From Acidobacteriota bacterium (lineage in GTDB: Bacteria; Acidobacteriota; UBA6911; RPQK01; JAJDTT01): a stretch of 64,000 nt of DNA. A program made the position numbers and the translations under genes. Below, piece by piece: positions 5,644 through 63,061 of the stretch (its first letter is position 1; each line of letters starts with the position of its first letter). The DNA lies in NCBI GenBank assembly GCA_965219855.1, contig CBDCOR010000022.1, forward strand, positions 835,826-899,825. Reading direction: 5' to 3'. A model generated the notes under the pieces. The model saw only the letters and a program-made list of their open reading frames with translations. It was not told where the DNA came from and did not search any database.

Positions 5644-5725
5644 GGCGTACTAAGCTGAAACTTCATTGGGATCGTCGCACGTCTGAACGTCCGAACGTCG
5701 CATGTCTCTTGCCACTGGGCAATGT
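5640..5725. repeat. Composite of repeat-end fragments. The terminal 20 nt of the GAAACTTCA-TIR element (family 4) sit next to a REP-like unit GTCGCACGTCTGAACGTCCGAACGTCGCATGTC plus a hairpin.
   Basis: CTAAGCTGAAACTTCATTGG is the reverse complement of the family-4 ends at 11.6 kb and 33.3 kb. The REP unit matches the elements at 24.4, 27.3 and 36.3 kb. Confidence 0.5.
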
Positions 5726-5807
5726 GGCGAGAGGCTTCAAGTTTCTTTCTCGAATGGGGCAGCCCGGCTGGGGCGCGACTAAGCCGAAACAAAATCGGCA
5801 AGAGTCG

Positions 5808-7634: not shown

Positions 7635-8188
7635 ACGCTCTTGCTCCTCTGTTTCTTGATTCTGGCTCTAACGGCTAGACTCTATTATGACGCCTACCCC
7701 TTTTTCCAGTCCGGTCTTGTAGACAGAGCCGAAACAGGCAGTTATAAGGAGTCTCAAATAGGGAGGATGCATGGGTGAATTTTTGATCGTAGGCATGATC
7801 GAACCCACGTACGTTTGATACGCCTGTGCTCCGAGTCCTCGACCGCGAAGTGCTGACGTCTGGGGGATTTGGAACGTTCAGACGTTCAGACAGGCTCCTC
7901 GCCCCGGATTTCCCACCGCCAGGCTACCGTACTGACTGTTTTTTCCCGCTCGACCGAAACAATAGGCACTGCGCGCCTGAATTCTGGAAGACGATCAGAG
8001 AGGGAGCCTGGGCCGACTTGAATCCCATCGCTCTGCAGCCATGGGGCGCGTGGCTATCCCAGGTGACGTGATAGTGGACACAGCGCCTGCAGCTCAGGTG
8101 TTGGGTCTGTGATTGGCGACAGTTAGAATTTCCCACGACGACAAATAGAATTCCCCACTTTTTCAGGGCTGATCCTGACCATGAGGGC

Positions 8189-43044: not shown

Positions 43045-43065
43045 CGTCCCTACAAGCGTTCGGCC

Positions 43066-44769
43066 TTGCCTACCCGCAACCCTACCAGCTGCAGCGTCGG
43101 GGATGTGGATCAAGATGGGTACCCCGACCTGGCCTTCGCCCAGCGATGGGCGGCCCAATACCAGAGCTCAAAGGCCTATCTCTACTGGGGAGGAGAGGAC
43201 GGTTTCAGTCCCGAGCGGAGGTCCGAACTACCCACCTCGGACGCAACCGGGGTCCAGACGGGCGACTTGAATGGAGACGGGGCCACGGATCTTGTCTTCA
43301 TCCATGCTGCCGACACCAACCTTCCCACCCCAAGCTATATCTACTGGGGTGACCAGGACGGTAGGTTCGAAGCCAGCCGACGCAAGGCGTTGCCCAGCGG
43401 CTACGGCTTCTGCTCCAGCGCCGATCTCAACCAGGACGGTCACGTGGACCTGCTCTTTGGGGCAATCCCTGACGACCGAAATGGCGCCGGAATCTATTGG
43501 GGCTATCGTGGAAGGTATTCATCGTGCGACCGCAGCAGTCTAGGGGACGTGCCAGTCTTCGGGTCCCGGGCCGCCGATTTCAACCGGGACGGCTACCTGG
43601 ACGTTTCTCTGGGCCTGTTTGCACCCGGCAGAGCCTCATCGACCGAGATCTACTGGGGCGGCCCCTCCGGATTCTCAAGCGAGAACCGTTTCGTGTCCGG
43701 GGTTGGCGGTATCCGCGGTCACGCCCTCGGAGATCTGAACCGCGACGATTGGCTGGACATCATCTTCAGCACGACCAACAACCAGGTCGTCATCTACTGG
43801 AACAGTGCTTTAGGTTTTGACAAAGACCACACCAGTACCCTGCCTGCAAGAGCCTCCGTTTCCGTCGAAGTGGCAGATCTTAATGGAGACGGTTTCCTGG
43901 AGATCATCGTCGCCAACCTCTTCGACAGCGATCCCGCTCCTGACAAGGCCCAGTCTTTTGGGGGATCTCCTCAAGGAGACACGTTTGTTTACTGGGGCGG
44001 AGGCAAGGGGTATGAGGCGTCCCGCAGGACGGTCCTTCCTTCGGTGGGAAACGCCGACGTGGCAGTGGCGGATTTAAACAACAACGGTCTGCTCGACATG
44101 GTCCTCAGCAGCTACCACGCCGGCTACACCCGGAGCCATCCTTCCACCATCTACTGGAACAGTAGCTCCGGGTTCGATGTCTCCCGGGCTACCCAGTTGC
44201 CCACCAACTCGGCCTCAGGCGTCTATGTCAGTGACTTCGACAGAAACGGTCACGCCGACATCTTTTTCGCCTGTCACTCCAAAGCGGGCAAGCACCGCAA
44301 CGATTCCTTCTTGTATTGGGGAAGCGAGGCTGGATTTTCGACCGAGCGCAGGACCCTCCTGCCGGGTCTGGGTCCCCATCAACTGACCTCGGACGTAGGC
44401 CATATCTACGATCGGGGGGATCGCTACGACTACATCTCGCCGCCCTTCGATACGGGTTCGAAGGCTCGCCTGGAGAGCATCAGTTGGAAGGGAGACACAC
44501 CCTTCGAGACGGGACTGGAGTTTCAGGTCCGCTGGGCCGACTCGAAGGAAGCACTGGTCTCGACTCCCTGGAGGGGACCGAGCGGGCTCCAGAGCTTCTA
44601 TACCGTCTCGGGGAGCAGTCTGGCCCAGGAAGAAGTCGAGGTGCGCTGGATCCAGTACAAGGCGACTCTCGTCAGCCCTGGATCGGCCAGCTCGCCGGTT
44701 CTGAAATCGGTGTCCATCCACTACTTTCCTAGCGGTGGGGATGTTTTTCGCGATCAACGCTTCGAATAG
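43066..44769 (+). CDS. FG-GAP repeat protein continuing in the same frame as 41884-43044.
   Basis: The same repeat unit continues across the TAG (…IYWASSEG * RPYKRSALPTRNPTSCSVGDVDQDGYPDLAFA…). The C-terminal 150 aa form a non-repeat domain. Confidence 0.7.
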   Translation: MPTRNPTSCSVGDVDQDGYPDLAFAQRWAAQYQSSKAYLYWGGEDGFSPERRSELPTSDATGVQTGDLNGDGATDLVFIHAADTNLPTPSYIYWGDQDGRFEASRRKALPSGYGFCSSADLNQDGHVDLLFGAIPDDRNGAGIYWGYRGRYSSCDRSSLGDVPVFGSRAADFNRDGYLDVSLGLFAPGRASSTEIYWGGPSGFSSENRFVSGVGGIRGHALGDLNRDDWLDIIFSTTNNQVVIYWNSALGFDKDHTSTLPARASVSVEVADLNGDGFLEIIVANLFDSDPAPDKAQSFGGSPQGDTFVYWGGGKGYEASRRTVLPSVGNADVAVADLNNNGLLDMVLSSYHAGYTRSHPSTIYWNSSSGFDVSRATQLPTNSASGVYVSDFDRNGHADIFFACHSKAGKHRNDSFLYWGSEAGFSTERRTLLPGLGPHQLTSDVGHIYDRGDRYDYISPPFDTGSKARLESISWKGDTPFETGLEFQVRWADSKEALVSTPWRGPSGLQSFYTVSGSSLAQEEVEVRWIQYKATLVSPGSASSPVLKSVSIHYFPSGGDVFRDQRFE

Positions 44770-45623: not shown

Positions 45624-46709
45624 CTACTCTTCGTGAGACGCCTGTTCTGTTAGATCCCAGGGTGGGGGGACGTTGGCTTCCCGGCTCGTCTGCTCGAGCC
45701 AGGGGAGCACTGCGGGGGGGACTGGGATACCGTTCAGGGACCGCTCTTGCACGGCCTCGTGCTCCATCTCGCCCGGGACATAGACTCGTTCCTGGCCGGG
45801 GACAGTGGGAGTGTCGTGCATCGAATCGATGAGGGTATCCATCATCGCCTTGAAGTCCGATGGGTCCTGGAATGCCTTTATGTCGATAGCCGCCAGCAGG
45901 TGATAGTTCTCGCCCGCCTGCATCGCGGGTCCGATATTGCCCCCGGAGAGGACGCCGCAGAGGATGTCCACCATCAGTCCTAGCCCATAGCCTTTGTGGC
46001 TGCCGTGTTCCGGATCGCCGCCAAGGGGGAGATAGCGTCCTTTCTGAGAAGCGATAGTGGAGTCGGTCAAGGGTCTTCCCTCCTCGTCCACGACCCAACC
46101 TTCAGGCAGCTGCTTGCCTGCCAGATGGGAAGTGTAGACCTTGCCCCCAGAGACCACGGTGGTCGCCATGTCCAGCTCAAAGGCAGGATGCTTGCCGGCC
46201 GGCGCGGCCAAGCTCAAGGGATTGGTTCCCAGTCGGGGATCGGTTCCGAAGGTGGGGACGGCGGCGGCCTTGCAGTTGGTCATGGTCAATCCAATCATGT
46301 TCCTGTGGACGGCCATGAGAGGGTAGAAGGAAGCCATTCCCAGATGGGTGCTGTGGGTCACCGAGACCATTCCAATGCCGTGGATTGGGGCTCGCTCCAT
46401 CGCCAGCTCCATGGCTTCCCAGGCTGCCACCTGGCCAAAGGCCAGATCGCCGTCCAGCAGGAGTGTAGCCCCTTGATCTCTGAGGATCTCCATCTCTGGT
46501 TCGAGATTGATCTTGCCCTGGTCGATCCGCTCCAGGTAGGGTCGCAGGCAGGTGAAGACCCCGTGGGAGTCGACGGCTCTCAGGTTGGCGGTTACCAGCA
46601 CCTCCACCACCCGCGTTGCATCGGCGGGACTTACTCCCTTCGCCAGCAGGATTTTCTCGGCCCAGCGGCTCAAGGGTACGGCCTGGATGGAACGCTGCGA
46701 TTGGCTCAT
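45624..46709 (-). CDS. Ldh2-family (malate/L-lactate/sulfolactate dehydrogenase type 2) oxidoreductase.
   Basis: The start is taken at MSQSQRSIQ. The family blocks HGxxxVSVTHSTHLG and GGxKGYGLGLMVDIL are present. Confidence 0.7.
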   Translation of the reverse strand: MSQSQRSIQAVPLSRWAEKILLAKGVSPADATRVVEVLVTANLRAVDSHGVFTCLRPYLERIDQGKINLEPEMEILRDQGATLLLDGDLAFGQVAAWEAMELAMERAPIHGIGMVSVTHSTHLGMASFYPLMAVHRNMIGLTMTNCKAAAVPTFGTDPRLGTNPLSLAAPAGKHPAFELDMATTVVSGGKVYTSHLAGKQLPEGWVVDEEGRPLTDSTIASQKGRYLPLGGDPEHGSHKGYGLGLMVDILCGVLSGGNIGPAMQAGENYHLLAAIDIKAFQDPSDFKAMMDTLIDSMHDTPTVPGQERVYVPGEMEHEAVQERSLNGIPVPPAVLPWLEQTSREANVPPPWDLTEQASHEE

Positions 46710-46738
46710 TCCGGTTCTACACTCAGCCCGAAGAATCT

Positions 46739-49294
46739 TTACCTTTGTCTTGGTTCGTTGCAACGGTCCAGAAAAGCGTGGCCGCACAGCTCTGGGTCCG
46801 AAAACGGAAGTAAAAAAAGCCAGTCGGCAGCCTCGTAGAGGATCACGTCGGCTGCCTCGTCCGGATGCGACAGGACCTCACAGATGATCGCTTCGCGTCG
46901 ACGGCGCGCGGCTTCTCGATCCTCCGCCCGGAGCGTTTCCTGCGCTTCGTAGAAGAAGCTCCGAGGGCCGCGGAAGGACGAGCCGTGATTGTCCGCCAGG
47001 TCGGCAAACGACTCACGAAGAAAGAGCTGGAACGGCTCCGGGTCGGGCATGCCCCGCACACCGAAGAGGACCGGTTCGGTCGGGAGTCCCTCGAGATCCA
47101 CCATCGCCATGCCTTCCCCGATGCTGCGGATGTGATTGATCGTCGACCACACACCGGCGTAGTTCGGGCCGTAGGGGGTGCCGTCCTGGCGTGCCATGGT
47201 CTCGAGGCCTCGTTTCACCGCGCGCACGGCCTCCTCGCGCGGCGGTAGCACGATCCGGGTGCGGACGCCAGGGAACGCTGTCGCGAAGGCTTCAAGCAAT
47301 CGGCGCACGCCTCGGGCAACTTCGCGGTTGCGCACGAAGCGCCAGCGAAACGGCGAATCCTCGGACTGGCAGCGCTCAGCCCATTCGCCGCGCTGCCACG
47401 TCGTGATTCGCTCGACGCTCCGCGGGTCGGCGGACCAGTCCTTGAGGACGGAATCTTCCGCCGCCGACAGTGGGGCATAGGCGCGATCGATGCCCAGGTG
47501 TGAGTAGCGTTTTCGTTCCGCCCGGTACTTGATAAGCGGCTGGATGCCTTCCGCCCCGTCGGCCTGGTAGGCCGCCAGCTGCACGTGAGACCGCGTGTTG
47601 ACTAAGATCTCGTCGAACGCCTCGAGGGCGAGGAGCGTGGAGACCTCCTTCACGGCATTAGCGCGCATTGCCGGCCTATTGAGATCCATCATTTCCACCG
47701 ACCATGGGGCTCCAAGATCGATCACGAGCTCGTGTCCCCGCAGGGGCAAACGCTCCGGCCCGCCTCGCAACAACGAGTAAGACGATTCGGTGGCGTAAAA
47801 CTCGGTGTAAGGCTGACCGTCGCTGGGGATTCCCGCGACTCTGGTGCGGCCCTCCGGGTCGAGCGAGGGGTCCAAGGCCCAAAACACGTTCTCGCGACCC
47901 AATCGGTTCCCCGCTTGCGACCATAAGCGGAGCGGCTCCAGCACCGGGACCTCGATCGATTCTTCGGCGGCCAAGGGATTCGACAGAACGAGAAAACGAT
48001 AGTGGCTCGGCACATTGAGACCCGTGACGCGCACGCGGTCGCCTTCATGCTCGACGTCGTATCCCGAAAGTACATGGCGCTGCGCTCGTGCTCGCGACCG
48101 AAACTCCCCAAAACGACGCACCCGGAACCGCCCTGAGGGCTGGCGCTGGAGAACGAACGAATCCTCCTTGAGCGGCGCGTAGTTCGCAGCCACGATGTGG
48201 AGGTTGTCGCGGCTCCTCTTGTAACGCTCGACGAACGAAGCGGCACCGTGCCCACCGGCAAACTCGATCGTCCCCAGTCGTCCTTTCGCCTCGTGCCCCA
48301 TCTCTCGCAGCACCGTGCGGTAGTGCGCGAAGCTGGTCTCTGCAGGGTGGTAGTTCAGCGCAGGCGTTGCCATCGGCAAGAAAGGCCAGAGAAACCTGCC
48401 GTTATGGTCGAACGCCGGGATCTCGTAGTATTTGGTCAGCGCTGTCTCGAAGGGGTGAAAGCTTGCCGTCAGTCGAATGCCGTGGTCCAACGCACTTTGG
48501 GAGAGCATCGATCCGAAGTCACGCTTGAGACGGATTGTGCACAGCTGTCGTATCCATCCCCAAGGCACGTGAAGTCCCCACTGGCCGGCGGCGCTCCCCC
48601 GCTTCCTGGCCTCGAAGAGCTTCTGGAGCTCTTCGCTCTGCGCGATGGCGCTCGCTTGTTGCTCGTAGCGTCTCCAGTCCTCCAGGCTATAATTGCCCGG
48701 GGCACAAATGTAGGGAAACGGACTGAGCCAGACGACCAATCGGACGATTCCTTGCCCCTGACAGCGCCTAAAGTACTGATCAAAGCCACTTTTTGCGATC
48801 GGCCGCCAATGCCCGTCGCGTGGATCCATAAAGATGCGAATGAGGTCGTCACCGAAGTCGGCAAGGTAGGAGATCGGGCGATCGGGCGGCGCCGTGCGGA
48901 CAGTGAGCTGCTGCGCCTCGTCGCCGCCGGGCAGCGTCAGGGAGACGTCGAGCGTAAACTCAAGTGCTGTCGCGTCTCCCCGCGCGACGACCGCGAGCTT
49001 TTGCTCCGAGGTCAAGCTGACGGTGATCCCCGAGAAGGCCAGTTCTTTTCCCTGAGCCAACGTCTTATCGCCGCGACGAGCGACGAAGTCAGGACGAACC
49101 TCCCGAGGCAGCTTGCGCTCGAGGAACGGCCAACTCCGCGTCCCCCCGCGCACGTAACAAAATGGCACCTCGGTGTTGCGCTCCGACAGGTAGATGTTCT
49201 CCGCCCGTGTCTCGCTCCCCATGAGGAGCCAAAGCATCGCGAGCCAGATCCCAGGCGCGATTGCGAGGCGCCTCCTGGTTCGTGTACCTCTCAT
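46739..49294 (-). CDS. Large secreted hypothetical protein of 851 aa, possibly a glycoside-hydrolase-like TIM barrel.
   Basis: Signal peptide. A long ORF with no confident motif. Confidence 0.45.
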   Translation of the reverse strand: MRGTRTRRRLAIAPGIWLAMLWLLMGSETRAENIYLSERNTEVPFCYVRGGTRSWPFLERKLPREVRPDFVARRGDKTLAQGKELAFSGITVSLTSEQKLAVVARGDATALEFTLDVSLTLPGGDEAQQLTVRTAPPDRPISYLADFGDDLIRIFMDPRDGHWRPIAKSGFDQYFRRCQGQGIVRLVVWLSPFPYICAPGNYSLEDWRRYEQQASAIAQSEELQKLFEARKRGSAAGQWGLHVPWGWIRQLCTIRLKRDFGSMLSQSALDHGIRLTASFHPFETALTKYYEIPAFDHNGRFLWPFLPMATPALNYHPAETSFAHYRTVLREMGHEAKGRLGTIEFAGGHGAASFVERYKRSRDNLHIVAANYAPLKEDSFVLQRQPSGRFRVRRFGEFRSRARAQRHVLSGYDVEHEGDRVRVTGLNVPSHYRFLVLSNPLAAEESIEVPVLEPLRLWSQAGNRLGRENVFWALDPSLDPEGRTRVAGIPSDGQPYTEFYATESSYSLLRGGPERLPLRGHELVIDLGAPWSVEMMDLNRPAMRANAVKEVSTLLALEAFDEILVNTRSHVQLAAYQADGAEGIQPLIKYRAERKRYSHLGIDRAYAPLSAAEDSVLKDWSADPRSVERITTWQRGEWAERCQSEDSPFRWRFVRNREVARGVRRLLEAFATAFPGVRTRIVLPPREEAVRAVKRGLETMARQDGTPYGPNYAGVWSTINHIRSIGEGMAMVDLEGLPTEPVLFGVRGMPDPEPFQLFLRESFADLADNHGSSFRGPRSFFYEAQETLRAEDREAARRRREAIICEVLSHPDEAADVILYEAADWLFLLPFSDPELCGHAFLDRCNEPRQR

Positions 49295-49322
49295 GCGATG
49301 TCTCTGTGGTCAGTTTCTGCGA

Positions 49323-50369
49323 TCACTTCTTGGCGCGGGTTGTGATCGGCACGAACTTTTGTGCCCGCTCGCTGTAGATTTCCCCGACGTAGAGATTGCC
49401 CTTCGAGTCCTGCGCGATGCAGTGTATGCCCACCGCCTCGCCGGGCTTGAGTCGAGACACGTCGGGGTTGTCCTTATCTTCTCCGATGTCGCCGAGCGGA
49501 ATCGACCAGAGCTGTAGCACGCGACCGCTGCGGTTGAAGCGTACGAACATCTGGTCTTTGAACTCCGGGTACTTCTCGTCGCGGAGCCACCAGTGCGGTG
49601 AGGATCCGACGACCCAGAGGTCGTCGCCGCTGACCGACAGGCCCCAAGGCATGATCACATTCGCCCACTGATCGAGAAACTTGCCTTGCTGGTCAAAGAT
49701 CTGGATGCGTGCGCTGTTGCGGTCCGCGACGTACAGCTTGCCAGTGGAGTCAACCACGATCGCGTGCGGCAGGACGAATTCTCCGGGTCCGGAGCCATAG
49801 CTCCCCCAGGCCTTGACGAACCTTCCTTGCTTGTCGAAATGGACGATCCTGCGGTTGCCGTAACCATCCGTGACGAAAACGTCGCCCTCGGAGGTAATGG
49901 CCATATCCGTCGGCATGTTGAAGTGTGTTTCGTCAGCGCCCTTGTCTCCTCGGACCCCGAGGGTCTGAAGGAGCTTTCCCTCCGGCGTGAACTTTTGCAC
50001 CACGTGCAAACCAAAATCGGCAACCCAGATGTTTCCCTCAGAGTCAATTCGCAAGTGGTGTGGATTCTTGAACAAACCCGTACCCCAGCTGCGCACGAAC
50101 TTCCCCTCGGCGGTATAGACCTGGACCGGATCAGGCCCTTTTCTGAAGAACCAGACTTGATCTTTGCCGTCGATCGCCAGGCCGGAGACCCAGCCAGCCC
50201 CGCCGACATGTTTGGGACGCTGGGGCCAGTCGGGATCGACGTCGTACTCGACAATCGTCGGCTGCTCGGCAAAGCTCGGATACTGCGCGCTCACGTACGC
50301 GCCGGTGAAGATCAGCGTCAAGGCCAGGACGAGCAGCAGCGGGTAGAGCGGACGGCGGTGTGTAGGCAT
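49323..50369 (-). CDS. Secreted NHL-repeat six-bladed beta-propeller protein, peptidylglycine-amidating-lyase-like.
   Basis: The start is taken at MPTHRRPLYPLLLV (signal). NHL repeats are present (NPHHLRIDSEGNIWVADFGLHVV, MPTDMAITSEGDVFVTDGYGNRRI, LPHAIVVDSTGKLYVADRNSARI). Confidence 0.7.
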   Translation of the reverse strand: MPTHRRPLYPLLLVLALTLIFTGAYVSAQYPSFAEQPTIVEYDVDPDWPQRPKHVGGAGWVSGLAIDGKDQVWFFRKGPDPVQVYTAEGKFVRSWGTGLFKNPHHLRIDSEGNIWVADFGLHVVQKFTPEGKLLQTLGVRGDKGADETHFNMPTDMAITSEGDVFVTDGYGNRRIVHFDKQGRFVKAWGSYGSGPGEFVLPHAIVVDSTGKLYVADRNSARIQIFDQQGKFLDQWANVIMPWGLSVSGDDLWVVGSSPHWWLRDEKYPEFKDQMFVRFNRSGRVLQLWSIPLGDIGEDKDNPDVSRLKPGEAVGIHCIAQDSKGNLYVGEIYSERAQKFVPITTRAKK

Positions 50370-50816
50370 GGAACAAAGCTCCCTTCGCAGACGTGGATGC
50401 TTGCGGCACAGGCTCCTAGGCAAAGATTCTCCTCGATTGCGACCACGACGTCGAGTAGAGCGAGGCTGTCTGGGAAAGAATTGCACCCGGCCCTCGATCG
50501 CGACGATTCTACCGAAAAGCGAGATGACGGTCTATTGAGACTATCATTCATGTCATGTCCCTCGCCAAAACTGTCTCCACTGATCGGATTTCGACAAAAG
50601 CTTCTTGATCACAAAGGGATCAGAAGCGCTGCTCAGCCAGAATGTCGTGGAAACATGCTTGCGGCAGATGTTGGGGTACTGATATATTTCGACCCTTCAT
50701 CAGTGAGAGATCTGAGGAACTGATGTTCAACCAGCGTAGGGGGCTCAGAGACGGGCTGACAGCCTTGCCGCGACACTGACTCGCGCCCTCCGCTGGGTCA
50801 TAGGAGGGAACACGCT

Positions 50817-52049
50817 GTGGCGACTGCCGAATTCGACAAGCCTGCGGGCCGGATGCCGCTCACTACGGGTCCGATAACACCCTTCCCTGATGCCGGCAAG
50901 CCGGAGGCGGAGGTCATCGCGGCGGTCCGCGCCCTGATCGGGCAAAATCCATACGCAATCGAGAGAGACTTCGGCAACTCATACTCCGGCATTCCGCAGC
51001 CAATAACGCGCCAGATCGACGAGCTCATGCGTGGCACCTACTTCGTGGAGTGGGCGTCGGAACAGCAGGGTGGAACCCTCGCGATCGAGCGCGAGGCCGT
51101 GCGCATGATGGCGTCGCTGCTCGGCCGTCCGGACGCGGTCGGGTTCGTCACCACCGGCGGCACTGAGTCCAACCTCGCCTCGATGCGGCTAGCCAGGAAT
51201 CGCGGCGGTCAGGCAGAGCCTGAGATCATTGCGCCGGTGTCAATGCATTTCAGCTTCCGGCTTGGTTCGGAGCTGATGAAGATCCGCCTCGTCGAGGTCG
51301 ATGTCGACGACGATTCCTATCTGCCTCGGATCGAGGATGTCGAGAAGGCGATCACGCCGCGAACGGTCGGGCTGGTCTGTTCTGCCCCTGGCGGCAGCTT
51401 CGGGGTGGTCGACCCGGTCGAGGCCTTCGCGGATCTCGCTTACCGCAAGGGGCTATGGCTGCACGTCGACGCTGCCTTCGGCGGGTTCATCCTTCCGTTC
51501 ATGCGCGACCTCGGTCATCCGATCGAGCCATTCGATTTTTCGCTGCCCGGCGTGTCGTCGATGATGACCGACGGCCACAAGCTTGGCCTGATGCCGATCG
51601 CGACCGGGTTCTTCCTCGCGCGCGAGGCCGAGATGTTCGACGCGATCCCTACCGAGTCGACCTTAATTCATACAACGTCATCCACCAAGCCGGGCAGCCG
51701 AGCCGCATCCGCATGGGCGGTCATGAAGCACCTCGGCCGAGAGGGCTACCAGCGCTCGACGGCTCATGTCCTGGAGCTTGCCAATACGATCGCCAAGGGC
51801 GTAACGGAGATCGCTGGCATCGACCTGATTGTCCCGCCCTTCATCTCGATCGTGGCGATCACCTCGAAGTCGGTCGACCTGTCCGATGTCCACCATCTGC
51901 TGGCTGACGACGGCTGGGGTCAAAGCTACGGCGAGAATCGAGGTAAACAGTTCATCCGTCTGTCGATCCATCCTTCGCGCGACATGGAGCACGCCCAGGG
52001 CTTTGTGCGCGCCTTTGCTGAGGCCACCAGAAAGGCACGCCGCCGCTAG
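50817..52049 (+). CDS. PLP-dependent group II decarboxylase, MfnA/tyrosine-decarboxylase-like.
   Basis: TTGGTESN, the DAAFGG motif, and the PLP lysine in SMMTDGHKLGLMP. Confidence 0.75.
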   Translation: MATAEFDKPAGRMPLTTGPITPFPDAGKPEAEVIAAVRALIGQNPYAIERDFGNSYSGIPQPITRQIDELMRGTYFVEWASEQQGGTLAIEREAVRMMASLLGRPDAVGFVTTGGTESNLASMRLARNRGGQAEPEIIAPVSMHFSFRLGSELMKIRLVEVDVDDDSYLPRIEDVEKAITPRTVGLVCSAPGGSFGVVDPVEAFADLAYRKGLWLHVDAAFGGFILPFMRDLGHPIEPFDFSLPGVSSMMTDGHKLGLMPIATGFFLAREAEMFDAIPTESTLIHTTSSTKPGSRAASAWAVMKHLGREGYQRSTAHVLELANTIAKGVTEIAGIDLIVPPFISIVAITSKSVDLSDVHHLLADDGWGQSYGENRGKQFIRLSIHPSRDMEHAQGFVRAFAEATRKARRR

Positions 52050-52068
52050 CACACCGGGAAGGTCTACC

Positions 52069-54336
52069 ATGCGATTGCTCGGGTATACCGATCGACTCAG
52101 TGTGGCTCCCGGGCAGTCCATCCACTTCATGGTCAGCTGCGACCACCCCGAGTATGACGCGCGACTCGTACGGCTCATTCACGGTGATACCAACCCCGCG
52201 GGGCCGGGCTTCAAGCAGGTGGTGGTGCCATCGGCGATCGATGGATCCAAGCCCGGTAAGCACGAAGAGATCCGCAGCGGCTCTTATGTCCAGATTCCGC
52301 TCCCCGGTGTCGAGCTCGACAGCGCAGTCACCTTCTTCGCCTTTGTCCAGTTGACGAACCCTGACGCCGGCGAGCAAACAATCGCGAGCATGGGCAATCC
52401 GTACGCGGGCGGCGGCTGGGCGCTCGGCCTTTCGGACGAGACACTCCAACTCGTTGTAAACCCGGGACACTCCGCACAACCGCTCCGCGTTTCCGGCGGG
52501 CCACTGCGACGTTGGGACTGGTACGCGGTAGCGCTCGCGGTCGATACGTCGAGTGGCACCGCGACCGTTTGGCAGCAACCTGTTCGTTCCTGGCCTGGCG
52601 ACGAAACACCGCCAGCGTCGATCTCCCTGGACGGGGGCATCGGCGCACCCTCAAACGCACCGCTCGTCCTCGCCGGCATCCTCAACGCGGATGGCCGGAC
52701 CAGCCACCACCTCGACGGTCGCATCGACCGGCCGCGTCTGCTCAGACGTTCACTCAACGCCTCCGAGCTTGCGAGCCTCGCTGCTGCCCCGGACGACCTC
52801 GACGGTCTGGGAGCGGATCTCATCGGCGCCTGGGACTTCAGCCGGGATCTCGACTCCGACGTCGCCATAGATGTGTCAGCCCACCGTCACGATGGACGCG
52901 CCGTCAACATGCCTGCCCGTGCCGTTGCCGGCCACAACTTTAGCGGCAAGGAGGTCTGCTTCCGGCTCGCCCCCGAGGAGTACGGAGCGATCCACTTTCA
53001 CCGCGACGACCTGGAGAACGCCCGCTGGGGGGTCGATTTCGAACTCGAGATCCCCACCGACCTGCCGAGCGGGGTTTATGCCGCCTGGCTTCGAGCCGGC
53101 TCCGACGAAGATTATCTGCCATTCATCGTGCGACCGCCGCGTGGTACCGCCACCTCGAACATAGCAGTCCTCATGTCGACGATGACGTACGTCTGCTACG
53201 CCAATTACACCGATCTCGGAGTGGGTGCCTGGCAGGAGGGTGCGACCGCGAAGTGGGGGGGCTCAACAGCGCCCTACGCCGACCCGACTCTGTTTCGCGA
53301 CGTCTACCGTTACGTCGATGAGAATGCACTGTACGGCCTCTATGATCGCCATCTCGACGGCTCAGGGGTGATCTATGGCTCCTATCTCAAGCCAATCCTC
53401 ACCATGCGTCCCAAATTCCGCTACCGGGTCATGGCGACTCCACCCCGTTTTCCGGCCGACCTGTACCTGGTCGACTGGCTCCACGCGAAGGGGTTCGAGG
53501 CCGACTTCATTACCGACCACGACCTGCACGCCGAGGGGCCGGAGCTTCTGCGCCACTACAACGTTGTCCTCTCCAGCTCTCACCACGAGTACTGGACCGG
53601 AGGCATGCTCGACTCGCTCGAGACGTACCTCGACGAGGGCGGCCGCTTCATGTACCTATCCGGGAATGGCCTCTATGGTGTAGTGAGCGTCGATCCGGCG
53701 CGGCCGCACAAGATCGAGGTGCGTCGCTGGGGAACGAGCTGGCCATTCGAGCTCCATCCAGCCGAGCGCTATCACAGCATAACTGGCGAACTGGGCGGGA
53801 CGTGGCGCAACCGAGGTCGAGCCCCCAACCGGATTGTCGGCGTGGGAACCGCTGGGGCCGAGTTCGAGGATGGCGTCCCATTCAAGCGGATGCCCGAGAG
53901 TCATGACCCGAGCGTCGCTTTTATCTTCGAGGGCATCGGTGCGGAAGAGCTCATCGGTGACCATCCTTCGCTTCAGGTCCGTTGGGGCGCTGCAGGATAC
54001 GAATTCGATCGCTACGAGACGGAGCTCGGTTCGCCGCAGACTACGCTCCTGCTCGCATCGTCGATCGGCTTCAAGACCCAATATACGAAATCCATGATCG
54101 ACGAAGAGCTCTGGTTCGCACCCGGACGCGATGGTGCACACGTCAGAGATCCGCAGCGCGACGGCGAGCCGCACCGTTTCGTGCGGGCCGACATGACCTA
54201 CACTGACTATCCGAATGGCGGCGCGGTTTTCAGCGCCGGATCGATCTGCTGGCGTGGAGGGATGTCGTGGAACGGCTACGACAACACGGTCTCGAGGGTC
54301 ACCGAGAATGTCCTCCGCTGCTTTGCCCAGGACTGA
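52069..54336 (+). CDS. N,N-dimethylformamidase large-subunit (DmfA2)-like protein.
   Basis: 755 aa from the ATG at 52069. The longer ORF-track start overlaps the upstream gene. Conserved blocks are LVRLIHGDTNPAGPGFK, PFIVRPPRGTATSNIAVLMSTMTYVCYAN and FVRADMTYTDYPNGGAVFSAGSICWRGGMSWNGYDN. Confidence 0.75.
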   Translation: MRLLGYTDRLSVAPGQSIHFMVSCDHPEYDARLVRLIHGDTNPAGPGFKQVVVPSAIDGSKPGKHEEIRSGSYVQIPLPGVELDSAVTFFAFVQLTNPDAGEQTIASMGNPYAGGGWALGLSDETLQLVVNPGHSAQPLRVSGGPLRRWDWYAVALAVDTSSGTATVWQQPVRSWPGDETPPASISLDGGIGAPSNAPLVLAGILNADGRTSHHLDGRIDRPRLLRRSLNASELASLAAAPDDLDGLGADLIGAWDFSRDLDSDVAIDVSAHRHDGRAVNMPARAVAGHNFSGKEVCFRLAPEEYGAIHFHRDDLENARWGVDFELEIPTDLPSGVYAAWLRAGSDEDYLPFIVRPPRGTATSNIAVLMSTMTYVCYANYTDLGVGAWQEGATAKWGGSTAPYADPTLFRDVYRYVDENALYGLYDRHLDGSGVIYGSYLKPILTMRPKFRYRVMATPPRFPADLYLVDWLHAKGFEADFITDHDLHAEGPELLRHYNVVLSSSHHEYWTGGMLDSLETYLDEGGRFMYLSGNGLYGVVSVDPARPHKIEVRRWGTSWPFELHPAERYHSITGELGGTWRNRGRAPNRIVGVGTAGAEFEDGVPFKRMPESHDPSVAFIFEGIGAEELIGDHPSLQVRWGAAGYEFDRYETELGSPQTTLLLASSIGFKTQYTKSMIDEELWFAPGRDGAHVRDPQRDGEPHRFVRADMTYTDYPNGGAVFSAGSICWRGGMSWNGYDNTVSRVTENVLRCFAQD

Positions 54337-54616
54337 GAAACGCCGTCTTCGGCATCTCGGACATAGCCGCACATCGAGGCAACTGCTGGTTCAGGATTAC
54401 ACCGTTTGAATGACACCTCGACGGTACGGCTCACGGCCTCCATGACCGCCACGAGGCGCCCCCAGCGCCTTACCCTGCTGCCGGCGTGGCGAACCGATCG
54501 AGTCCTTGCGCAGCTACGCGATCCGGGCCCGACCGGGGTAGCGCTTGCTCAAGAGGAACGAGTCGATTCCTGAGGAACTTTCGTCGACTCAGATAGGCAA
54601 GAGTAGACTCCCGAAC

Positions 54617-55537
54617 CTATTGGCCGACATCTTGTCGCACCTGTACAGGTTCGCCGCCGTGCTCGTTGATCCACCTGCGCGACCACTCGACCGTTTCCAA
54701 GTTCAGGTCGCAGATGTTGGTGGCCAGAAAGATCATGCCCTCGATACGGCCTTCGTGCAGCCAACGAAGTGCCTGCTCGCACTGCATCTTCATCGACTCG
54801 AGCGGCATGGGCCGTCGATTGCCGAAGTCCCACATGTACAGGCCTAGCAGCCTTTTCTTGCCGCGCGGCACCAGCTTTTCGTACTTGGCGAAATTGGTCT
54901 CCAGGTTGGCCAGCTCCGGCGCCCGCCAAGTCCACAGCGAAACCGTGTCACACAACTCCAGATGCGGTAAGATCCGCTCGTCGAGCTGGTGCGTGTAAAG
55001 CGTCACGCCCAAGTCAAGCCGACGACCGGCCACGCGCATCTGTTTGCGGAACTCGCGCAGCTGTGCGACCGTCATTGCCGCCAGCGGTTGTCCGTCGGGG
55101 AGCGGACGTCCGACATCAAAGTGAAAGAAATCGTCCATAAAGACGCCCGTCATGTTCGGCATATCCTGAGCGAGCTTCAGTACATGTTGGCGTTCTTCGG
55201 GTGACGTGAGGCCACTTGCGCCGGTGATCGACCACACCACCCGCTCCAGGCTTTTGAAGGGAATGGCGTACTGTTGGAAGGGCGGCTCTGGCCTGTCGTG
55301 GTAACGGATGAAGATGATATTTGGCACGCCAAGGAAGTGCGCACCCTCGACCGGCGTGATCCGTGAGTTGCCAGGCAATCCGTAATTGCCGTTGTACACG
55401 CCCGCTTCGTGCGACCAGGCCCATATACACTCCCGTACCGTTTGCGGCTGCGCGGCCCAGGTACTGGTGGACTGAGACCATGCGCTCCAGGTAATAGCCA
55501 ACGTCGCTAGCATCAACCAAGATCTGGAATCTGTCAT
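54617..55537 (-). CDS. Hypothetical secreted protein.
   Basis: Signal peptide MTDSRSWLMLATLAITWSAWSQ. No recognisable catalytic motif. Confidence 0.4.
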   Translation of the reverse strand: MTDSRSWLMLATLAITWSAWSQSTSTWAAQPQTVRECIWAWSHEAGVYNGNYGLPGNSRITPVEGAHFLGVPNIIFIRYHDRPEPPFQQYAIPFKSLERVVWSITGASGLTSPEERQHVLKLAQDMPNMTGVFMDDFFHFDVGRPLPDGQPLAAMTVAQLREFRKQMRVAGRRLDLGVTLYTHQLDERILPHLELCDTVSLWTWRAPELANLETNFAKYEKLVPRGKKRLLGLYMWDFGNRRPMPLESMKMQCEQALRWLHEGRIEGMIFLATNICDLNLETVEWSRRWINEHGGEPVQVRQDVGQ

Positions 55538-55558
55538 ATCACTTTCTGGTTGGAACCA

Positions 55559-55825
55559 CACTGGAACGTAAATACGGCAACGTTTGCAGATGGGGCTTGC
55601 GAGGCGAGATCAAGGCAGGAGGAGGAAGTCGATGCTCTTCCATCTGCGACGACGACCAACGCAGAGATCGTCCGCAACCCCCATCTGCCCTACGGGTGGC
55701 GACGCGACACGCCGATTTCTTTGTCGCTCCTCCTCCTCCATGATACCAAGCATCGAGTTCGTCGTCGCTTCGCGACCTCGACCCGTCGCGCTCGCCACAA
55801 ACGTTGTCGTATTTACGTTCCAGTG
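55559..55825. repeat. MITE family 3, a ~267-bp palindromic element, full copy.
   Basis: The 28-nt terminal inverted repeats are CACTGGAACGTAAATACGGCAACGTTTG / CAAACGTTGTCGTATTTACGTTCCAGTG. An internal long inverted repeat is built around GGAGGAGGAAG...CCTCCTCCTCC. Confidence 0.6.
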
Positions 55826-56169
55826 TCACTGCCCGATGCCGGCGTGGAACCGACCCCTGCGAGTTGGGCAACGGCGGAAGTCCCAGTTGAAGTCGCTCCC
55901 AGTCTATTATCCTTTTAACTGATTCATTATAATCATGTTGTCACGATATCTGAATAGTTCAACCGGACAGTAGTGTTCCAGTGTACTAAATTCTGCTTTG
56001 GCAAGCTGATAAGTACTGAGATGAAATAAGATGAAGACCTCTGCTATTGGTCACAAGCACCAAATTCCGAAAAGGTCTTCCACCATCACCCCAATATTGC
56101 CAATCCAACAGTGCCCGACCGGCACCTACCTTGACTCCGTTCGGGAGAACTGCGAGGCTCTTGATCAGA

Positions 56170-59257: not shown

Positions 59258-60736
59258 TTAGGCGAGGAGCTGGTGGGCTACATTACCTGCTACGTCGGTC
59301 AGGCGAAAATCCCTACCCTGGTAACGATAGGTGAGCCGCTCATGGTCCAGACCCAGGCAATGAAGAATCGTGGCGTGAAAATCATGGACGTGGATCTTGT
59401 CCTCCACAATGTTCAAACCCAGATCATCCGTCTGGCCCACGATCTGTCCACCCTGGATCCCGCCACCCGCCATCCAGAGCGTGAAAGCGAAGGGTTGGTG
59501 GTCACGTCCTCGATTGTCGCCGTCGACGACCTTGCTGCGCTCAACCATGGGAGTACGTCCAAATTCGCCTCCCCAGATGACCAGCGTTTCGTCCAACATG
59601 CCTCTCTGCTTTAGATCCTTCAAGAGTGCTGCGGTAGGCTGATCGGTCATCTCGCAGTTGCTCTTCAATCGCTTGTTGAGCTCGGTGTGATCGTCCCAGC
59701 TGGAATGGTTAAGCTGCACGAATCGGACTCCCCTCTCCACCAATCTGCGGGCCAGCAGACAATTGATTGCAAACTGATTCGAATTCGTCTTTCTGGCGGT
59801 GGCATAAGAATTCGGCTGATTATTTACACCATACAGGTCCTGGATGTGCTCGGGTTCCTGGGAAAGGTCCAACAGCTTCGGAGCTGCGCTCTGCATGCGA
59901 AAGGCCAGTTCATAGGAGGCAATTCGGGAGGCAATCTCGATGTCGCCGACGTCGGCGAAGTGTTTCTGGTTGAGGTCACGAAGCGCGTCGAGTCTGGCCC
60001 GTTGACTGTTTTCGCTGATTCCTTCCGGATTGGAAAGGTAGAGCACCGGGTCTCCGCCACTTCGGAAGGGCACGCCCTGATAACTGGAGGGAAGAAAGCC
60101 ACTGGACCAGGCCTTGCCCCCAGAATGGGTTGGATCTCCCGAGCTCAACACGACGAAGCCGGGCAGGTTCTGGGACTGGCTGCCCAGACCGTAGGTGACC
60201 CAGGACCCCATGGCTGGCCGACCGGCAAGTGGTGCCCCGCAGCTGAACATCAACTGGCCCGGATGGTGGTTGAATTGATCCGTATACATGGAGCGGATCA
60301 TGCAGATATCATCGGCGCATTTTGCGGTGTGGGGCAGCAGGTCCGAAAATTCCATCCCGCACTCTCCATAGCGCCGGAATTTTCGCTGACTGGCCCAGAT
60401 CTCAGCCGTGGGTTTGATGAAGGCCAGCTTCAGGTCTTTGGTCATGGACGGGGGAAGAGGGGATCCCTCCCACTTCTTCAGCTCCGGTTTGGGATCGAAC
60501 AGATCGACCTGACTGGGCGCTCCCGCCATGAACAGGAAGATCACGTTCTTGGCGGTGGCTGGAAAGTGTGGAGTTCTGGGATGCAGGGGATTGAGCTGCG
60601 GGAGTTCAGTCGAGAGTCTACCCGCAAGGCCCTCCTGGGAGAGCAAGTTCCAGAGAGCGAGCAGACCCACTCCTCCTGCACACTGTTCAAAGAAGTGCCG
60701 ACGCGTCTGGATCTGTCTGAATTCCTGTAGATTCAC
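59258..60736 (-). CDS. DUF1501-family protein (sulfatase-like), TAT-secreted.
   Basis: RRHFFEQCAGGVGLLAL twin-arginine signal. The family-typical length. Confidence 0.8.
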   Translation of the reverse strand: MNLQEFRQIQTRRHFFEQCAGGVGLLALWNLLSQEGLAGRLSTELPQLNPLHPRTPHFPATAKNVIFLFMAGAPSQVDLFDPKPELKKWEGSPLPPSMTKDLKLAFIKPTAEIWASQRKFRRYGECGMEFSDLLPHTAKCADDICMIRSMYTDQFNHHPGQLMFSCGAPLAGRPAMGSWVTYGLGSQSQNLPGFVVLSSGDPTHSGGKAWSSGFLPSSYQGVPFRSGGDPVLYLSNPEGISENSQRARLDALRDLNQKHFADVGDIEIASRIASYELAFRMQSAAPKLLDLSQEPEHIQDLYGVNNQPNSYATARKTNSNQFAINCLLARRLVERGVRFVQLNHSSWDDHTELNKRLKSNCEMTDQPTAALLKDLKQRGMLDETLVIWGGEFGRTPMVERSKVVDGDNRGRDHQPFAFTLWMAGGGIQGGQIVGQTDDLGLNIVEDKIHVHDFHATILHCLGLDHERLTYRYQGRDFRLTDVAGNVAHQLLA

Positions 60737-60740
60737 TTAG

Positions 60741-63061
60741 TCACTCCCTGGTGATGAACTCCTCGAGATTCAAAAAGACGCTGCTGACGCCGACCCAGGC
60801 GGCGGCCGAGGCTGGGTCCGTTCTGTCGAGAATCTCCGGAGGAAGCACCTTCGCGATCGACGTTGGCTCCTGTTGCAGGATCTCCCGCTGCTGCTCGTAG
60901 TATTTCACCAGGCGATCCACTTCAGTGGCATCTGGCTCCCGCGCCAGACAAACCCGAAAGCCGTATTCTACCCGCTTTTGCGCTGAACCCGATTCTTCCT
61001 CTTGTAGGCGGACCGCAAGCGCCTTCGCGGCCTCGAAAAAGACGGGATCGTTGAGCAGGTTCAGGGCCTGTAGGGCAGTGGTAGATCGCTCACGCCGCGT
61101 ACACGATTCCTGAGCGTCGGGCGCGTCGAAAACCATCAGCTGCGGATAGGGGGCAGTACGCTTGGCCAGAACATAGAGTCCGCGCCGGTAGCGCTCCTTC
61201 CCCTTGCTCTCTGCGAACCCGTGGAAACGATGTCCCAGATCGGCGAGGTTCTGGGGCAGCGGCGGCAGGACACTCTCGCCGCCAACCACAGGGTTGAGAA
61301 GATTGCTGGCTGCCAGAGCTGCATCACGAATCAGCTCTGCCGGAAGACGTAGGCGAGATTGACGAGCCAGCAAGCGGTTGGCCGGATCCCGCTGCTGCAG
61401 GTCGTCCCTCTGCTTGGACGCTTGCCGGTAGGTGGCAGATTCCACGATGAACCGATGCATCCGCTTGACATCCCATCCCGAGGTCATGAATTCGGTGGCT
61501 AACCAGTCGAGGAGCTTGGGGTGGCTCGGCCGCTCGCCTCGGATTCCAAAGTCTCCCGCCGTGGAGACCAGACCGGTGCCGAAGAACTCCTGCCACATAC
61601 GGTTTACAGCAACCCGAGCGGTCAGGGGATTGTCCTCCGATACCAGCCATTGGGCCAGTTCCAGACGAGTGGGATTAGCACGGGAGGGCAGGGGATGCAG
61701 AATTGCCGGTGTTCCCGGTCGTACCTCGATTCCCGGATTGCGGAAATCGCCTCGCAACTGCAGATGCGTGGTCCGTGGATGGGGATGGGGAATCAGCGTC
61801 TGGGCTTCACTTAGCGACGGGAACTCGGCCCTCAGTTTGGCCAGCTCCTGGTTCAGCTCTTTGAGACCCAGTTCCTCATACCGTTCTTTGTCGACCACGT
61901 GATTGTAGGAACGAACGAAGTAGTCTGTCAGTCGGTCTTTCTGTTTTTGAGTTCGTTGAGAAGGATCTCCTGCCCGCCGTCGAACAACCATCCCACTTTT
62001 CGCCAGGCTAGTGTCCAGATGAGATCCACCTTGGAACTGCTGGCGGCCTCGAGTAACTTGGCTTCCCATTCGGTTTGCAGGGCGACGGCAGGAACCTGAT
62101 CCAGGAGCTTGCGTCTGCGTCTCTGGTATTCGGGCCTCTGCCGGAGGTAGGGGCCCATTTCGCCGGGGAGCGGGGCCTCGATATTGACCTCTTTGTCTCC
62201 ATTGAAGAAAGTGTAAAGCCGGTAGTACTCCCGTTGGGAAATCGGGTCGTATTCGTGATCGTGGCACTGGGCACAGCCGACGGTCAGACCGAGCCAGATG
62301 GCTCCTACAGTGTTGGTACGATCGACGATCTGCTTGACTCGAAATTCCTCTCGGTCGGTTCCGGTTTCGCGCTGCGTCAGTGTGTTGCGATGGAAGCCGG
62401 TGGCTACCCGCTGCTCCACGGTGGCGTTGGGTAATAGATCGCCGGCCATCTGCTGAATCGTGAACTGATCGAAGGGCAGGTTGCGGTTGAGCGCCTGGAT
62501 GACCCAGTGGCGATAACGCCAGGCATGAGGTCTGGGGCCGTCATTGTATCCGTCACTATCCGCATACCGGGCCAGATCCAGCCAATGCCGCGCCCACTTC
62601 TCTCCGTAGTGTGTCGAAGAAAGAAGATGGGTGACCAGGCGCTCATAAGCATCTGGTCGATGATCGGCCAGGAAGGCTTCGAGTTCCTCTGGCGGCGGCG
62701 GCAGCCCAATCAGGTCCAGGTAGAGCCGGCGAATCAGGGTGGATCGTTCGGCTTCCGGTGAGGGAGTAGTTCCTTCGCTTTCAAGACGAGCAAGGATGAA
62801 CGAGTCGATGGGGTTGCGAACAGAGGCGCGGAGCATGACGTGGGGTAATTCAGGTCGCTCCGGTGGTAGCAAGGACCAATGCGTCTGCTGTTTCGAAGCT
62901 GCTTCTGTCGGTGATGGTGGGTTCTGAGTCAGATCCTGTGCGAGTGTTGGTGAGAACAGCAGGGTCAGGGAAGCCAGGAAGATCGCCGACTTTCGAGGAG
63001 GAACGGAAGTGGTTTGAGCGGGCGGTTGTTGGCTTTCCGGTCCCTTCAGAGTTGCGGCCAT
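60741..63061 (-). CDS. DUF1549 + DUF1553 (PSD1-type) protein interrupted by a frameshift.
   Basis: The N-terminal ORF (61928-63061) is DUF1549-like. The C-terminal ORF (60741-62267) is DUF1553-like. The frame switch is at a run of five A residues (CTCAAAAACAGAAAGACC) near 61945. Confidence 0.7.

Follow-up and report, generated by a model that had tools for sequence, protein, structure and literature searches.

N,N-Dimethylformamidase (DMFase; DmfA1A2, EC 3.5.1.56, structure 6LVB) of Paracoccus sp. DMF and P. aminophilus is an alpha2beta2 enzyme in which the three-domain large subunit, DmfA2, binds iron through Y399, Y440 and E521, His519 is essential, and the N547A and E657A variants are inactive (PMC7686228). 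The Paracoccus large subunit is inactive by itself; the small subunit, DmfA1, stabilises it and helps to form the substrate entrance (PMC7686228). On pAMI2, dmfA2 is accompanied by dmfA1 and by a gene for a LuxR-type regulator. AceAB, the acetamiprid amidase of Pigmentiphaga sp. D-2, is a DMFase-family amidase that acts on a xenobiotic and consists of an alpha and a beta subunit; it is described as having high sequence identity to both P. aminophilus DMFase subunits, yet is inactive on N,N-dimethylformamide (DMF), so that specificity within the DMFase fold has diverged (PMC11573777). The N-acetyl-(R)-beta-phenylalanine acylase (8HUY, 8I59, 8I5A), on whose structures we found no open-access paper, lacks the DmfA1-like chain that is present in six DMFase PDB entries. 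Characterised enzymes of this fold cut a formyl, acetyl or acetamidine-type group off an amine, the substrates being DMF (PMC7686228), N-acetyl-beta-phenylalanine and acetamiprid (PMC11573777); in each case the leaving acyl-type group is small (C1-C2) and the amine is bulky or secondary. Here we analyse a 64,000-nucleotide stretch of an Acidobacteriota genome (contig CBDCOR010000022.1, positions 835,826 to 899,825 of the forward strand; hereafter the window), in which a gene for a DmfA2-like protein (gene 2) directly follows a gene for a pyridoxal 5'-phosphate (PLP)-dependent decarboxylase (gene 1), and show that this pairing is conserved across phyla. The original prediction, made from the sequence of the window, had placed the two genes on one strand, 19 nt apart, with a second protein of 755 aa, and these coordinates stand exactly. 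The features of the pair are as follows (L numbers denote individual loci).

50700..50816, + strand: conserved 5' stretch, presumed promoter and leader, aligning with the Acidobacteriota loci L013, L028 and L003
50817-52049, + strand: gene 1, group II PLP-dependent decarboxylase of the MfnA/sphingosine-1-phosphate (S1P) lyase branch, 410 aa
51579-51581, + strand: codon of the gene 1 PLP lysine, K255, in the motif DGHK
52050-52068, + strand: intergenic spacer of 19 nt, with a Shine-Dalgarno-like GGGAAGG at 52056-52062, 6 nt before the ATG
52069-54336, + strand: gene 2, putative single-subunit DmfA2-like amidohydrolase, 755 aa, with Ig-like, LamG-like and ThuA/GATase-like domains
53197-53199, 53341-53343 and 53587-53589, + strand: codons of the gene 2 iron ligands Y377, Y425 and E507, predicted by alignment to DMFase
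53581-53583, 53665-53667 and 54001-54003, + strand: codons of the gene 2 catalytic residues H505, N533 and E645, predicted by alignment to DMFase
54337..54420, + strand: conserved 3' tail, with a hairpin GCCG-TCTT-CGGC at 54342-54353 and no T-run

To place the pair in context, 78 loci encoding relatives of gene 2 were compared, one genome per species being scanned with up to 10 kb of flank each, and clades were defined on a neighbour-joining tree of the DmfA2-like proteins. A full-length decarboxylase ortholog (52-92% identity) lay within 10 kb of the DmfA2-like gene in 54 of the 78 loci. The linked loci made up 24/31 of clade A and 30/32 of clade B, or 54/63 of the two clades nearest to gene 2, compared to 0/15 in the other clades (Fisher p=3e-10), and in every linked locus plotted on the tree both genes were on the same strand. 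In clade A, whose DmfA2-like proteins are at least 56% identical to gene 2 and which carries the labels Acidobacteriota/Bryobacterales, 'Spirochaetia' metagenome-assembled genomes (MAGs), Chloroflexia, Limnocylindrales, Anaerolineaceae, Opitutaceae and Dactylosporangium, the decarboxylase immediately precedes the DmfA2-like gene on the same strand, most loci having a gap of approximately -68 to +83 nt. Clade B comes from Chloroflexota and is 49-55% identical to gene 2; here the decarboxylase follows on the same strand, separated from the DmfA2-like gene in 16 loci by a gene for a 529-aa protein without a family match. The other 15 loci encode proteins 44-48% identical to gene 2 that group on the tree with genuine DMFase (40% identical). 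The linked loci are labelled as five phyla (Acidobacteriota, Chloroflexota, Actinomycetota, Verrucomicrobiota and, among MAGs, Spirochaetia), and the adjacency has outlasted a change in gene order, the decarboxylase being 5' in clade A and 3' in clade B.

The linkage was also examined from the side of the decarboxylase. Scanning metagenomes with decarboxylase motifs as seeds gave 80 loci, comprising 5 orthologs of gene 1 and 75 outgroup MfnA-like genes (30-40% identity to gene 1). A DmfA2-like gene or its remnant was present in 3 of the 3 ortholog loci that could be evaluated and in 0 of the 75 outgroup loci, 54 of which had at least 2.5 kb of flank on one side. Three further decarboxylase orthologs, retrieved by exact-sequence look-up, were each followed by a DMFA2_C gene. 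Because the forward survey separates the linked clades from the rest, the reverse scan is empty for outgroup genes and the orthologs were all linked, the linkage is specific on both sides, and the pairing of decarboxylase and DmfA2-like gene is not due to chance. Over the 54 loci, the identities of the two proteins to the window copies co-vary (r=0.95). No fusion of the two was found among the homologs examined. Our literature search found no paper on a decarboxylase + DmfA2-like pair, and nothing on PF20254 function beyond DMFase or on the specificity determinants of MfnA. Both folds, both chemistries and, from structures, a single-subunit DMFase-fold enzyme acting on an N-acetyl amino acid are already known; what appears to be new is the conserved cross-phylum operonic pairing and the subfamily that it defines.

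Gene 2, with an ATG start codon at 52069, can be assigned by sequence comparison as a full-length, three-domain member of the DMFA2_C superfamily (Pfam PF20254; 7e-81; 272.9 bits, the cut-off being 27; positions 2 to 374 of the 374-position model), with a further match to Pfam PF13385 LamG. The homology to DMFase large subunits over long blocks that had been proposed at the outset extends from end to end (6LVB, E=3.6e-149), and the alignment to the acylase 8HUY is nearly as complete (E=4e-100). Identity is about 36-40% to the DMFase large subunit, depending on method, and 39-40% to P. aminophilus DmfA2, compared to ~30% to 8HUY. An AlphaFold2 model built from 21 sequences (predicted local distance difference test, pLDDT, 71.8 overall) is weak around the active site, with pLDDT <50 at residues 374-459, 534-584 and 668-693. 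In Foldseek searches with this model, the full-length matches were DMFase (6LVE/6LVD/6LVB, TM 0.77-0.78) and the acylase (8HUY, TM about 0.73-0.74) and no other protein.

The Tyr/Tyr/Glu iron ligands, to which the original prediction had drawn attention, are kept, together with the equivalents of H519, N547 and E657. In the HMMER alignment, Y377/Y425/E507/H505/N533/E645 of gene 2 correspond to DMFase Y399/Y440/E521/H519/N547/E657, all six being identical; they are invariant or nearly so in 21 homologs (52-93% identity), and 8HUY carries the same six. A mononuclear iron site of the 2-Tyr-1-carboxylate type is thus predicted for gene 2. With the metal ligands kept and the linkage specific on both sides, the idea that gene 2 is a non-catalytic homolog without conserved synteny is rejected.

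The absence of a dmfA1 gene at this locus was borne out. A tblastn search with the P. aminophilus pAMI2 product found no DmfA1 homolog better than E=2.8, which is noise, in the 64-kb window and the 78 loci, and the locus thus lacks the small subunit that DMFase proper requires. A survey of ~20,800 genomes and MAGs detected the DMFase large subunit in 952 and the small subunit in 41 (bioRxiv 10.1101/2021.03.18.435917). Given these counts and an acylase without a DmfA1-like chain, a lone large subunit is the norm in the DMFase-like family, and the absence of DmfA1, while real, is unremarkable by itself. With its catalytic set present and no DmfA1-like partner, gene 2 fits the single-subunit type represented by 8HUY.

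The linked proteins also form a recognisable subfamily. At 17 alignment positions, both linked clades share a fixed residue that differs in all other clades. In DMFase and gene 2 numbering these include W551 to G537, four residues past the oxyanion Asn, Y581 to R567, E474 to R460, Q467 to Y452 with an added R453, F611 to A597, and a three-residue Gly-x-Asp-Gly insertion beside the F693 loop; F693 itself, a residue of the neighbouring subunit that narrows the DMFase pocket, is Trp in gene 2. Three arginines (R567, R460 and R453) are thus gained in the linked subfamily. At the readable signature positions the acylase 8HUY is of the non-linked type, with W, Y and H in place of G537, R567 and R460. 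These substitutions may point to a pocket of greater size and more positive charge, apt for a substrate that bears a carboxylate, so that the substrate of gene 2 would be anionic and larger than DMF. The DMFA2_C family numbers 1,037 members at E<=1e-30 among 1.84 billion cluster representatives (50% identity clusters), of which only the top one to four belong to the window subfamily, identity falling to 44-48% thereafter.

Gene 1 passes the family threshold of Pfam PF00282 (6e-20, 71.8 bits against a cut-off of 27), so that the earlier assignment as a decarboxylase held, while its designation as MfnA type proved only approximate. The top NCBIfam model, TIGR03812 (MfnA), scores 255.6 bits (6.6e-76), short of the curated cut-off of 299.4, and gene 1 by this measure falls outside the MfnA equivalog. 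Its best solved relatives by sequence are S1P lyases, both bacterial and eukaryotic (1e-47), the enzyme of Symbiobacterium thermophilum (StSPL, 3MAD, 1.2e-47) ranking ahead of MfnA (3F9T, 1e-36). With MfnA, the archaeal L-tyrosine/L-aspartate decarboxylase (3F9T, 6JY1), gene 1 shares its best NCBIfam model and a length of ~400 aa. The motifs GGTES, SMHFS, HVDAAFGG and DGHK are all found in gene 1. They supply the cofactor-site residues H144 (ring-stacking; in SMHFS), D218 (pyridine nitrogen; in HVDAAFGG) and K255, which are common to StSPL and invariant across 13 gene 1 orthologs; more than 120 such orthologs were found, each with at least 63% identity. The HVDAAFGG and HK motifs are as would be anticipated for PLP enzymes of the MfnA branch, and the HVDAAFGG motif and the HK-L-G-x-x-P-I loop seem to resemble those of decarboxylases. 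We treat the product as a probable decarboxylase of unassigned specificity rather than a lyase, its reaction type being read from family membership.

An S1P-lyase identity of gene 1 was considered and rejected. The residues of S1P lyases that contact the substrate phosphate and sandwich the PLP are Y105, A103, N126, H129, K317 and C276 in the S. thermophilum enzyme (StS1PL numbering; PMC6148460 Table 3). In our alignment gene 1 keeps Y105, and the other five are changed (A103 to N, N126 to V, H129 to A, K317 to I and C276 to A). Gene 1 is also smaller, its 410 aa falling ~100 aa short of the S1P lyases that it matches in the PDB (roughly 480-550 aa).

At the DNA level, the window was compared with the Acidobacteriota loci L001, L002, L003, L005, L013, L014 and L028. 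In these related MAGs homology is confined to positions ~50,650-54,413 (84-92% DNA identity), beginning about 100-170 nt before gene 1 and ending about 50-85 nt after gene 2. The sequences on either side of the two genes show no relationship, and the pair behaves like a cassette of 3.7 kb. Gene 1 starts with GTG, has a Shine-Dalgarno sequence GGAGG at 50803-50807, nine bases 5' of the start, and stops with TAG at 52047-52049. The ~115 nt 5' of its start can be aligned with L013, L028 and L003, homology ending farther upstream, and the 3' tail can be aligned with L013 and L028 for ~85 nt past the stop before diverging; the tail was not scored as an intrinsic terminator. Rfam gave zero matches at E<=1 over 49000-56000, leaving a riboswitch or leader RNA upstream of gene 1 unsupported, shuffled sequence is predicted to fold as well as the conserved 5' region does (z=-0.29), and a + strand scan for promoters and terminators returned nothing convincing, including no sigma-70-like promoter.

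Several of these relatives carry broken pairs. In L001, L003 and L005, homology to the window breaks in the spacer, at 52048/52057-52066. A 1.4-kb unrelated insert separates the two genes in L003; in L001 and L005, decarboxylase fragments lie 8.4 kb upstream of the DmfA2-like gene with unrelated DNA between; and in L002 and L014 the DmfA2-like gene is preceded by housekeeping genes.

Two other arrangements were observed in metagenome data. A Chloroflexi MAG contig (L015/L089, Ga0194132_10006900) carries a decarboxylase at 120-1310 followed by tandem DmfA2-like genes at ~1430-3637 and 3681-5903, each 60-61% identical to gene 2. On contig Ga0310123_10029168 (L098, 2429-3481), residues 1-153 of the decarboxylase (88%) almost abut residues 557-755 of the DmfA2-like protein (89%), which looks like a decayed copy in which a deletion took out the junction of the two genes.

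Both genes are intact with their catalytic residues kept, the small subunit is absent, and the linkage across phyla is two-sided. The reading that we favour, and consider somewhat better than an even bet, is that the pair is a two-gene operon whose products act in one two-step catabolic pathway on a single metabolite skeleton; the shared pathway, the catabolic role and the order of steps, which the original prediction had left open, are what we infer. Neither protein has an N-terminal signal sequence, and the product of gene 2 would be a cytoplasmic single-subunit amidohydrolase with a mononuclear iron held by two tyrosinates and one glutamate, assisted by His, Asn and Glu. In a first step, this amidase would unblock an N-formyl- or N-acetyl-type amino acid or cleave the side-chain amide of an amino acid. 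In a second step, the decarboxylase would turn the amino-acid moiety into a primary amine. In a third, enzymes that vary with the lineage would deaminate the amine to an aldehyde and oxidise it, adjacent transaminase, kinase/phospho-lyase and aldehyde dehydrogenase genes perhaps handling the amine in some lineages. Deacylation followed by decarboxylation would be the simplest coupling, because PLP decarboxylases require a free alpha-amino group; with a side-chain amide substrate, either order would be possible. An N-acetyl amino acid is the class of substrate known for the acylase, for which no linked decarboxylase is known, and it is the linked decarboxylase and the gained arginines that suggest deacylation of such a compound by gene 2. 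The original prediction of an amine or amide catabolic pair, or of an uncharacterised use of the DmfA2 fold, gains support from the kept iron ligands and from synteny conserved well beyond this genome.

A wider version of this proposal would make the pair a natural, ancestral-type use of the DMFase fold, namely a pathway widespread in soil and freshwater for degrading an unrecognised natural N-acyl or amide-bearing amino acid. A single-subunit amidase with Tyr2Glu-bound iron would act there with its own dedicated decarboxylase, possibly as a complex in which the decarboxylase replaces DmfA1. In this full form we advance it tentatively, as rather unlikely.

Several points weigh against a two-step catabolic operon. 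First, gene 1 scores below the MfnA equivalog cut-off, so that even its type of reaction is an assignment by family. Second, pooled Pfam scans of ~240 neighbouring open reading frames (ORFs) from 30 loci found no family conserved in most loci; there is no universal third gene, transporter or regulator, and the commonest neighbour families occur in 3-4 of 16 clade-A loci. Third, four close Bryobacterales relatives (L001, L002, L005 and L014) lack an intact decarboxylase adjacent to the DmfA2-like gene, so that the coupling is not obligatory or the partner is encoded elsewhere. Lastly, with a structural model of poor quality around the active site, the relation of the 17 signature positions to the pocket is conjectural.

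The pair stands alone in the window, between a divergent gene upstream and an unrelated convergent one downstream. Both encode proteins with signal-like N-termini, in keeping with the secreted NHL-propeller and secreted hypothetical flanks described earlier. These two genes and the largest cluster found elsewhere are as follows.

49323-50486, - strand: NHL-repeat beta-propeller protein, divergent upstream, with a signal-peptide-like N-terminus (Pfam NHL, 1.7e-24, and SGL)
54617-55561, - strand: hypothetical protein, 314 aa, convergent downstream, with no family hit and a signal-like N-terminus
~1-18750 of L086/L087 (Micromonospora) and L017/L019 (Dactylosporangium), one strand: 13-gene cluster around the pair

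Among the PDB matches of the NHL protein is 3FVZ (3e-33), the PAL domain of peptidylglycine amidating monooxygenase; peptidyl-alpha-hydroxyglycine amidating lyase is an amide-producing enzyme. NHL homologs (36-47% identity) lie beside or near the pair in eight other loci (L002, L016, L020, L022, L024, L030, L044 and L070). They are directly upstream on the same strand in L022 (7698-8756) and L070 (4366-5298), the copy in L016 being at 6865-7797, and the same-strand homologs upstream of the pair in several Chloroflexota/Limnocylindrales have no signal peptide. Because several Chloroflexota also have an NHL gene beside the pair, its presence in the window may be more than incidental, the protein being possibly an accessory partner outside the conserved core.

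The families NHL, BNR_2, PhyH, GFO_IDH_MocA, MR_MLE and Aminotran_3 recur in sub-lineages only. Class III aminotransferases (Aminotran_3) adjoin DmfA2-like genes in five lineages and are immediately upstream of the pair in Opitutaceae. In the Micromonospora and Dactylosporangium cluster, the 5' part encodes an Opp-type ABC transporter (SBP_bac_5 and two permeases, with the ATPase seen in Micromonospora), an APH-kinase+Aminotran_3 fusion and a PucR-like regulator. The decarboxylase and DmfA2-like genes follow, then an SDR gene, an Amidohydro_3 gene and a D-Ser-dehydratase/D-hydroxyaspartate-aldolase-like gene, and the 3' end holds two aldehyde dehydrogenases in Micromonospora, one being seen within the Dactylosporangium locus. 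Kinase + Aminotran_3-like pairs include amino-alcohol kinase/phospho-lyase systems, and a decarboxylase yielding an amino alcohol from a beta-hydroxy amino acid would fit this context. The Micromonosporaceae clusters thus suggest conversion of a beta-hydroxy amino-acid derivative to an amino alcohol, which we regard as a lead rather than a result.

Other observations concern individual neighbourhoods. The 529-aa protein of clade B (L035, 12277-13866, and 15 other Chloroflexota loci) carries repeated S-x-D-G-x-x-W motifs, which suggest a beta-propeller glycosidase-like fold; Pfam and NCBIfam gave no match to it, and BLAST showed no similarity to the clade-A BNR_2 neighbour or to the window hypotheticals. 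On the MAG-like (3.6-Mb) metagenome contigs L080, L081 and L085, the pair lies among four PhyH dioxygenases, two sulfatases, a GH4 gene and an FA_hydroxylase-family gene, and small toxin-antitoxin genes (PemK, PIN and AbiEii) are inserted just upstream of it. Within the window, an Ldh_2-family dehydrogenase (45624-46787, - strand) and FG-GAP repeat proteins (41884-44769, + strand) lie 4-9 kb upstream of the pair. Ldh_2 homologs, clustering with those of L034, L036, L049 and L072, and FG-GAP/ASPIC proteins are also upstream of the pair in clade-B Chloroflexota, which could be a coincidence in genomes rich in these families. An 851-aa ORF (46739-49294, - strand) with a signal-like N-terminus had no Pfam or NCBIfam match and no homolog in the fetched loci. 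A DUF1501 protein (59258-60736, - strand; 7.6e-163) and a 508-aa ORF (60741-62267, - strand) recur as a pair of the same clusters in L014 and L068. A defence-system reading was tried with PADLOC models and discarded, the matches being generic PLP-fold noise only.

Other explanations of the pair were weighed against catabolism. In a biosynthetic module, a masked precursor could be turned into a specific amine (tyramine, beta-alanine and amino alcohols are examples) destined for a cofactor or a secondary metabolite. MfnA, which produces tyramine and beta-alanine, is an enzyme of biosynthesis, and the pair stands without catabolic neighbours in the window and at many loci. The larger clusters, however, look catabolic, with an uptake ABC transporter, a PucR-type regulator, a transaminase/phospho-lyase and aldehyde dehydrogenases, and no non-ribosomal peptide synthetase, polyketide synthase or cofactor genes were seen in the scanned neighbourhoods. 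The patchy distribution, with loss or breakage in close relatives, is also unlike an essential cofactor route, and on balance we hold a biosynthetic role to be unlikely.

Alternatively, and compatibly with a two-step pathway, the decarboxylase could be a physical partner that replaces DmfA1, the PLP enzyme stabilising or gating the amidase within a hetero-complex that channels the intermediate. The DMFase small subunit offers a precedent, with its stabilising effect on the large subunit and its contribution to the entrance for substrate (PMC7686228). The genes are tightly linked, their frames abutting or overlapping by a few bases in L018/L082-084 and L004-type MAGs (judging by called genes and by approximate gaps), and the proteins co-diverge. 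Co-divergence is also expected from simple co-inheritance, however, and no fusions of the two were found. The acylase 8HUY was solved without a DmfA1-like chain, so the fold needs no partner, and some close relatives have no adjacent decarboxylase. Such a complex seems quite unlikely.

A further possibility is the catabolism of sphingolipid-like compounds or long-chain bases, in which the DmfA2-like protein would be a ceramidase-type N-deacylase and the PLP enzyme an S1P-lyase-type retro-aldolase. It would explain the top PDB matches of gene 1 (S1P lyases, 1e-47, ahead of MfnA, 1e-36) and the FA_hydroxylase-family gene that lies directly upstream of the pair in the one lineage of L080, L081 and L085. 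Against it, gene 1 keeps a single one of the six S1P-lyase signature residues, scores 255.6 bits with the MfnA model and is the shorter by ~100 aa, while no sphingoid-base kinase was seen in the annotated neighbourhoods. Known DMFase-fold enzymes, moreover, take off C1-C2 groups, not fatty acyl chains. We find this explanation decidedly improbable.

That gene 2 is a genuine N,N-dimethylformamidase, hydrolysing DMF to formate and dimethylamine, or an N-methylformamide amidase, and would enable growth on DMF-like formamides beside an unrelated decarboxylase gene, seems scarcely tenable. The homology is full-length, all the catalytic residues are intact, and its relatives are annotated 'N,N-dimethylformamidase' in source records. 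Nonetheless, it is only 39-40% identical to P. aminophilus DmfA2 and falls in a clade apart from genuine DMFase, with pocket-adjacent residues changed (W551 to G, Y581 to R and F693 to W); with F611 to A and the insertion beside the F693 loop in addition, it would seem not to have the constricted aromatic pocket of that enzyme. No DmfA1 is encoded at the locus, and AceAB, described as highly identical to the two DMFase subunits, is already inactive on DMF (PMC11573777). Among the neighbouring genes examined, none was identified as a methylamine or dimethylamine gene, and the specific cross-phylum linkage is to a decarboxylase that has no role in DMF catabolism. With its own residue signature, including W551 to G and three gained arginines, the linked subfamily is unlikely to be a DMF hydrolase, and for gene 2 this activity is very unlikely.

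Finally, adjacency without functional meaning, the two independent genes being together by chance or hitch-hiking, would fit the lack of a shared regulator or conserved third gene and the pair split in four relatives, but it is very unlikely given the linkage counts (54/63 vs 0/15, p=3e-10; reverse control 0/75) and an adjacency found under the labels of five phyla and in both gene orders.

DMF is a synthetic solvent, yet large-subunit homologs are common, their natural substrates are essentially unassigned, and genome surveys routinely interpret DmfA2-like genes as 'DMF degradation potential'. This locus cautions against annotating such genes as DMFase. It overturns nothing, but makes the role of orphan DmfA2-like genes experimentally tractable, because a subfamily with a strict cross-phylum partner narrows the chemistry to an amide on an amino-acid skeleton followed by decarboxylation. 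Culturable carriers with richer clusters, Dactylosporangium fulvum (NRRL B-16292, for example) and Micromonospora sp., are the best handles for finding the substrate. If the pair does degrade a natural N-acyl or amide-bearing amino acid, that compound would help to explain why a fold known for hydrolysing xenobiotic solvents and pesticides is represented by roughly a thousand sequence clusters among bacteria and archaea.

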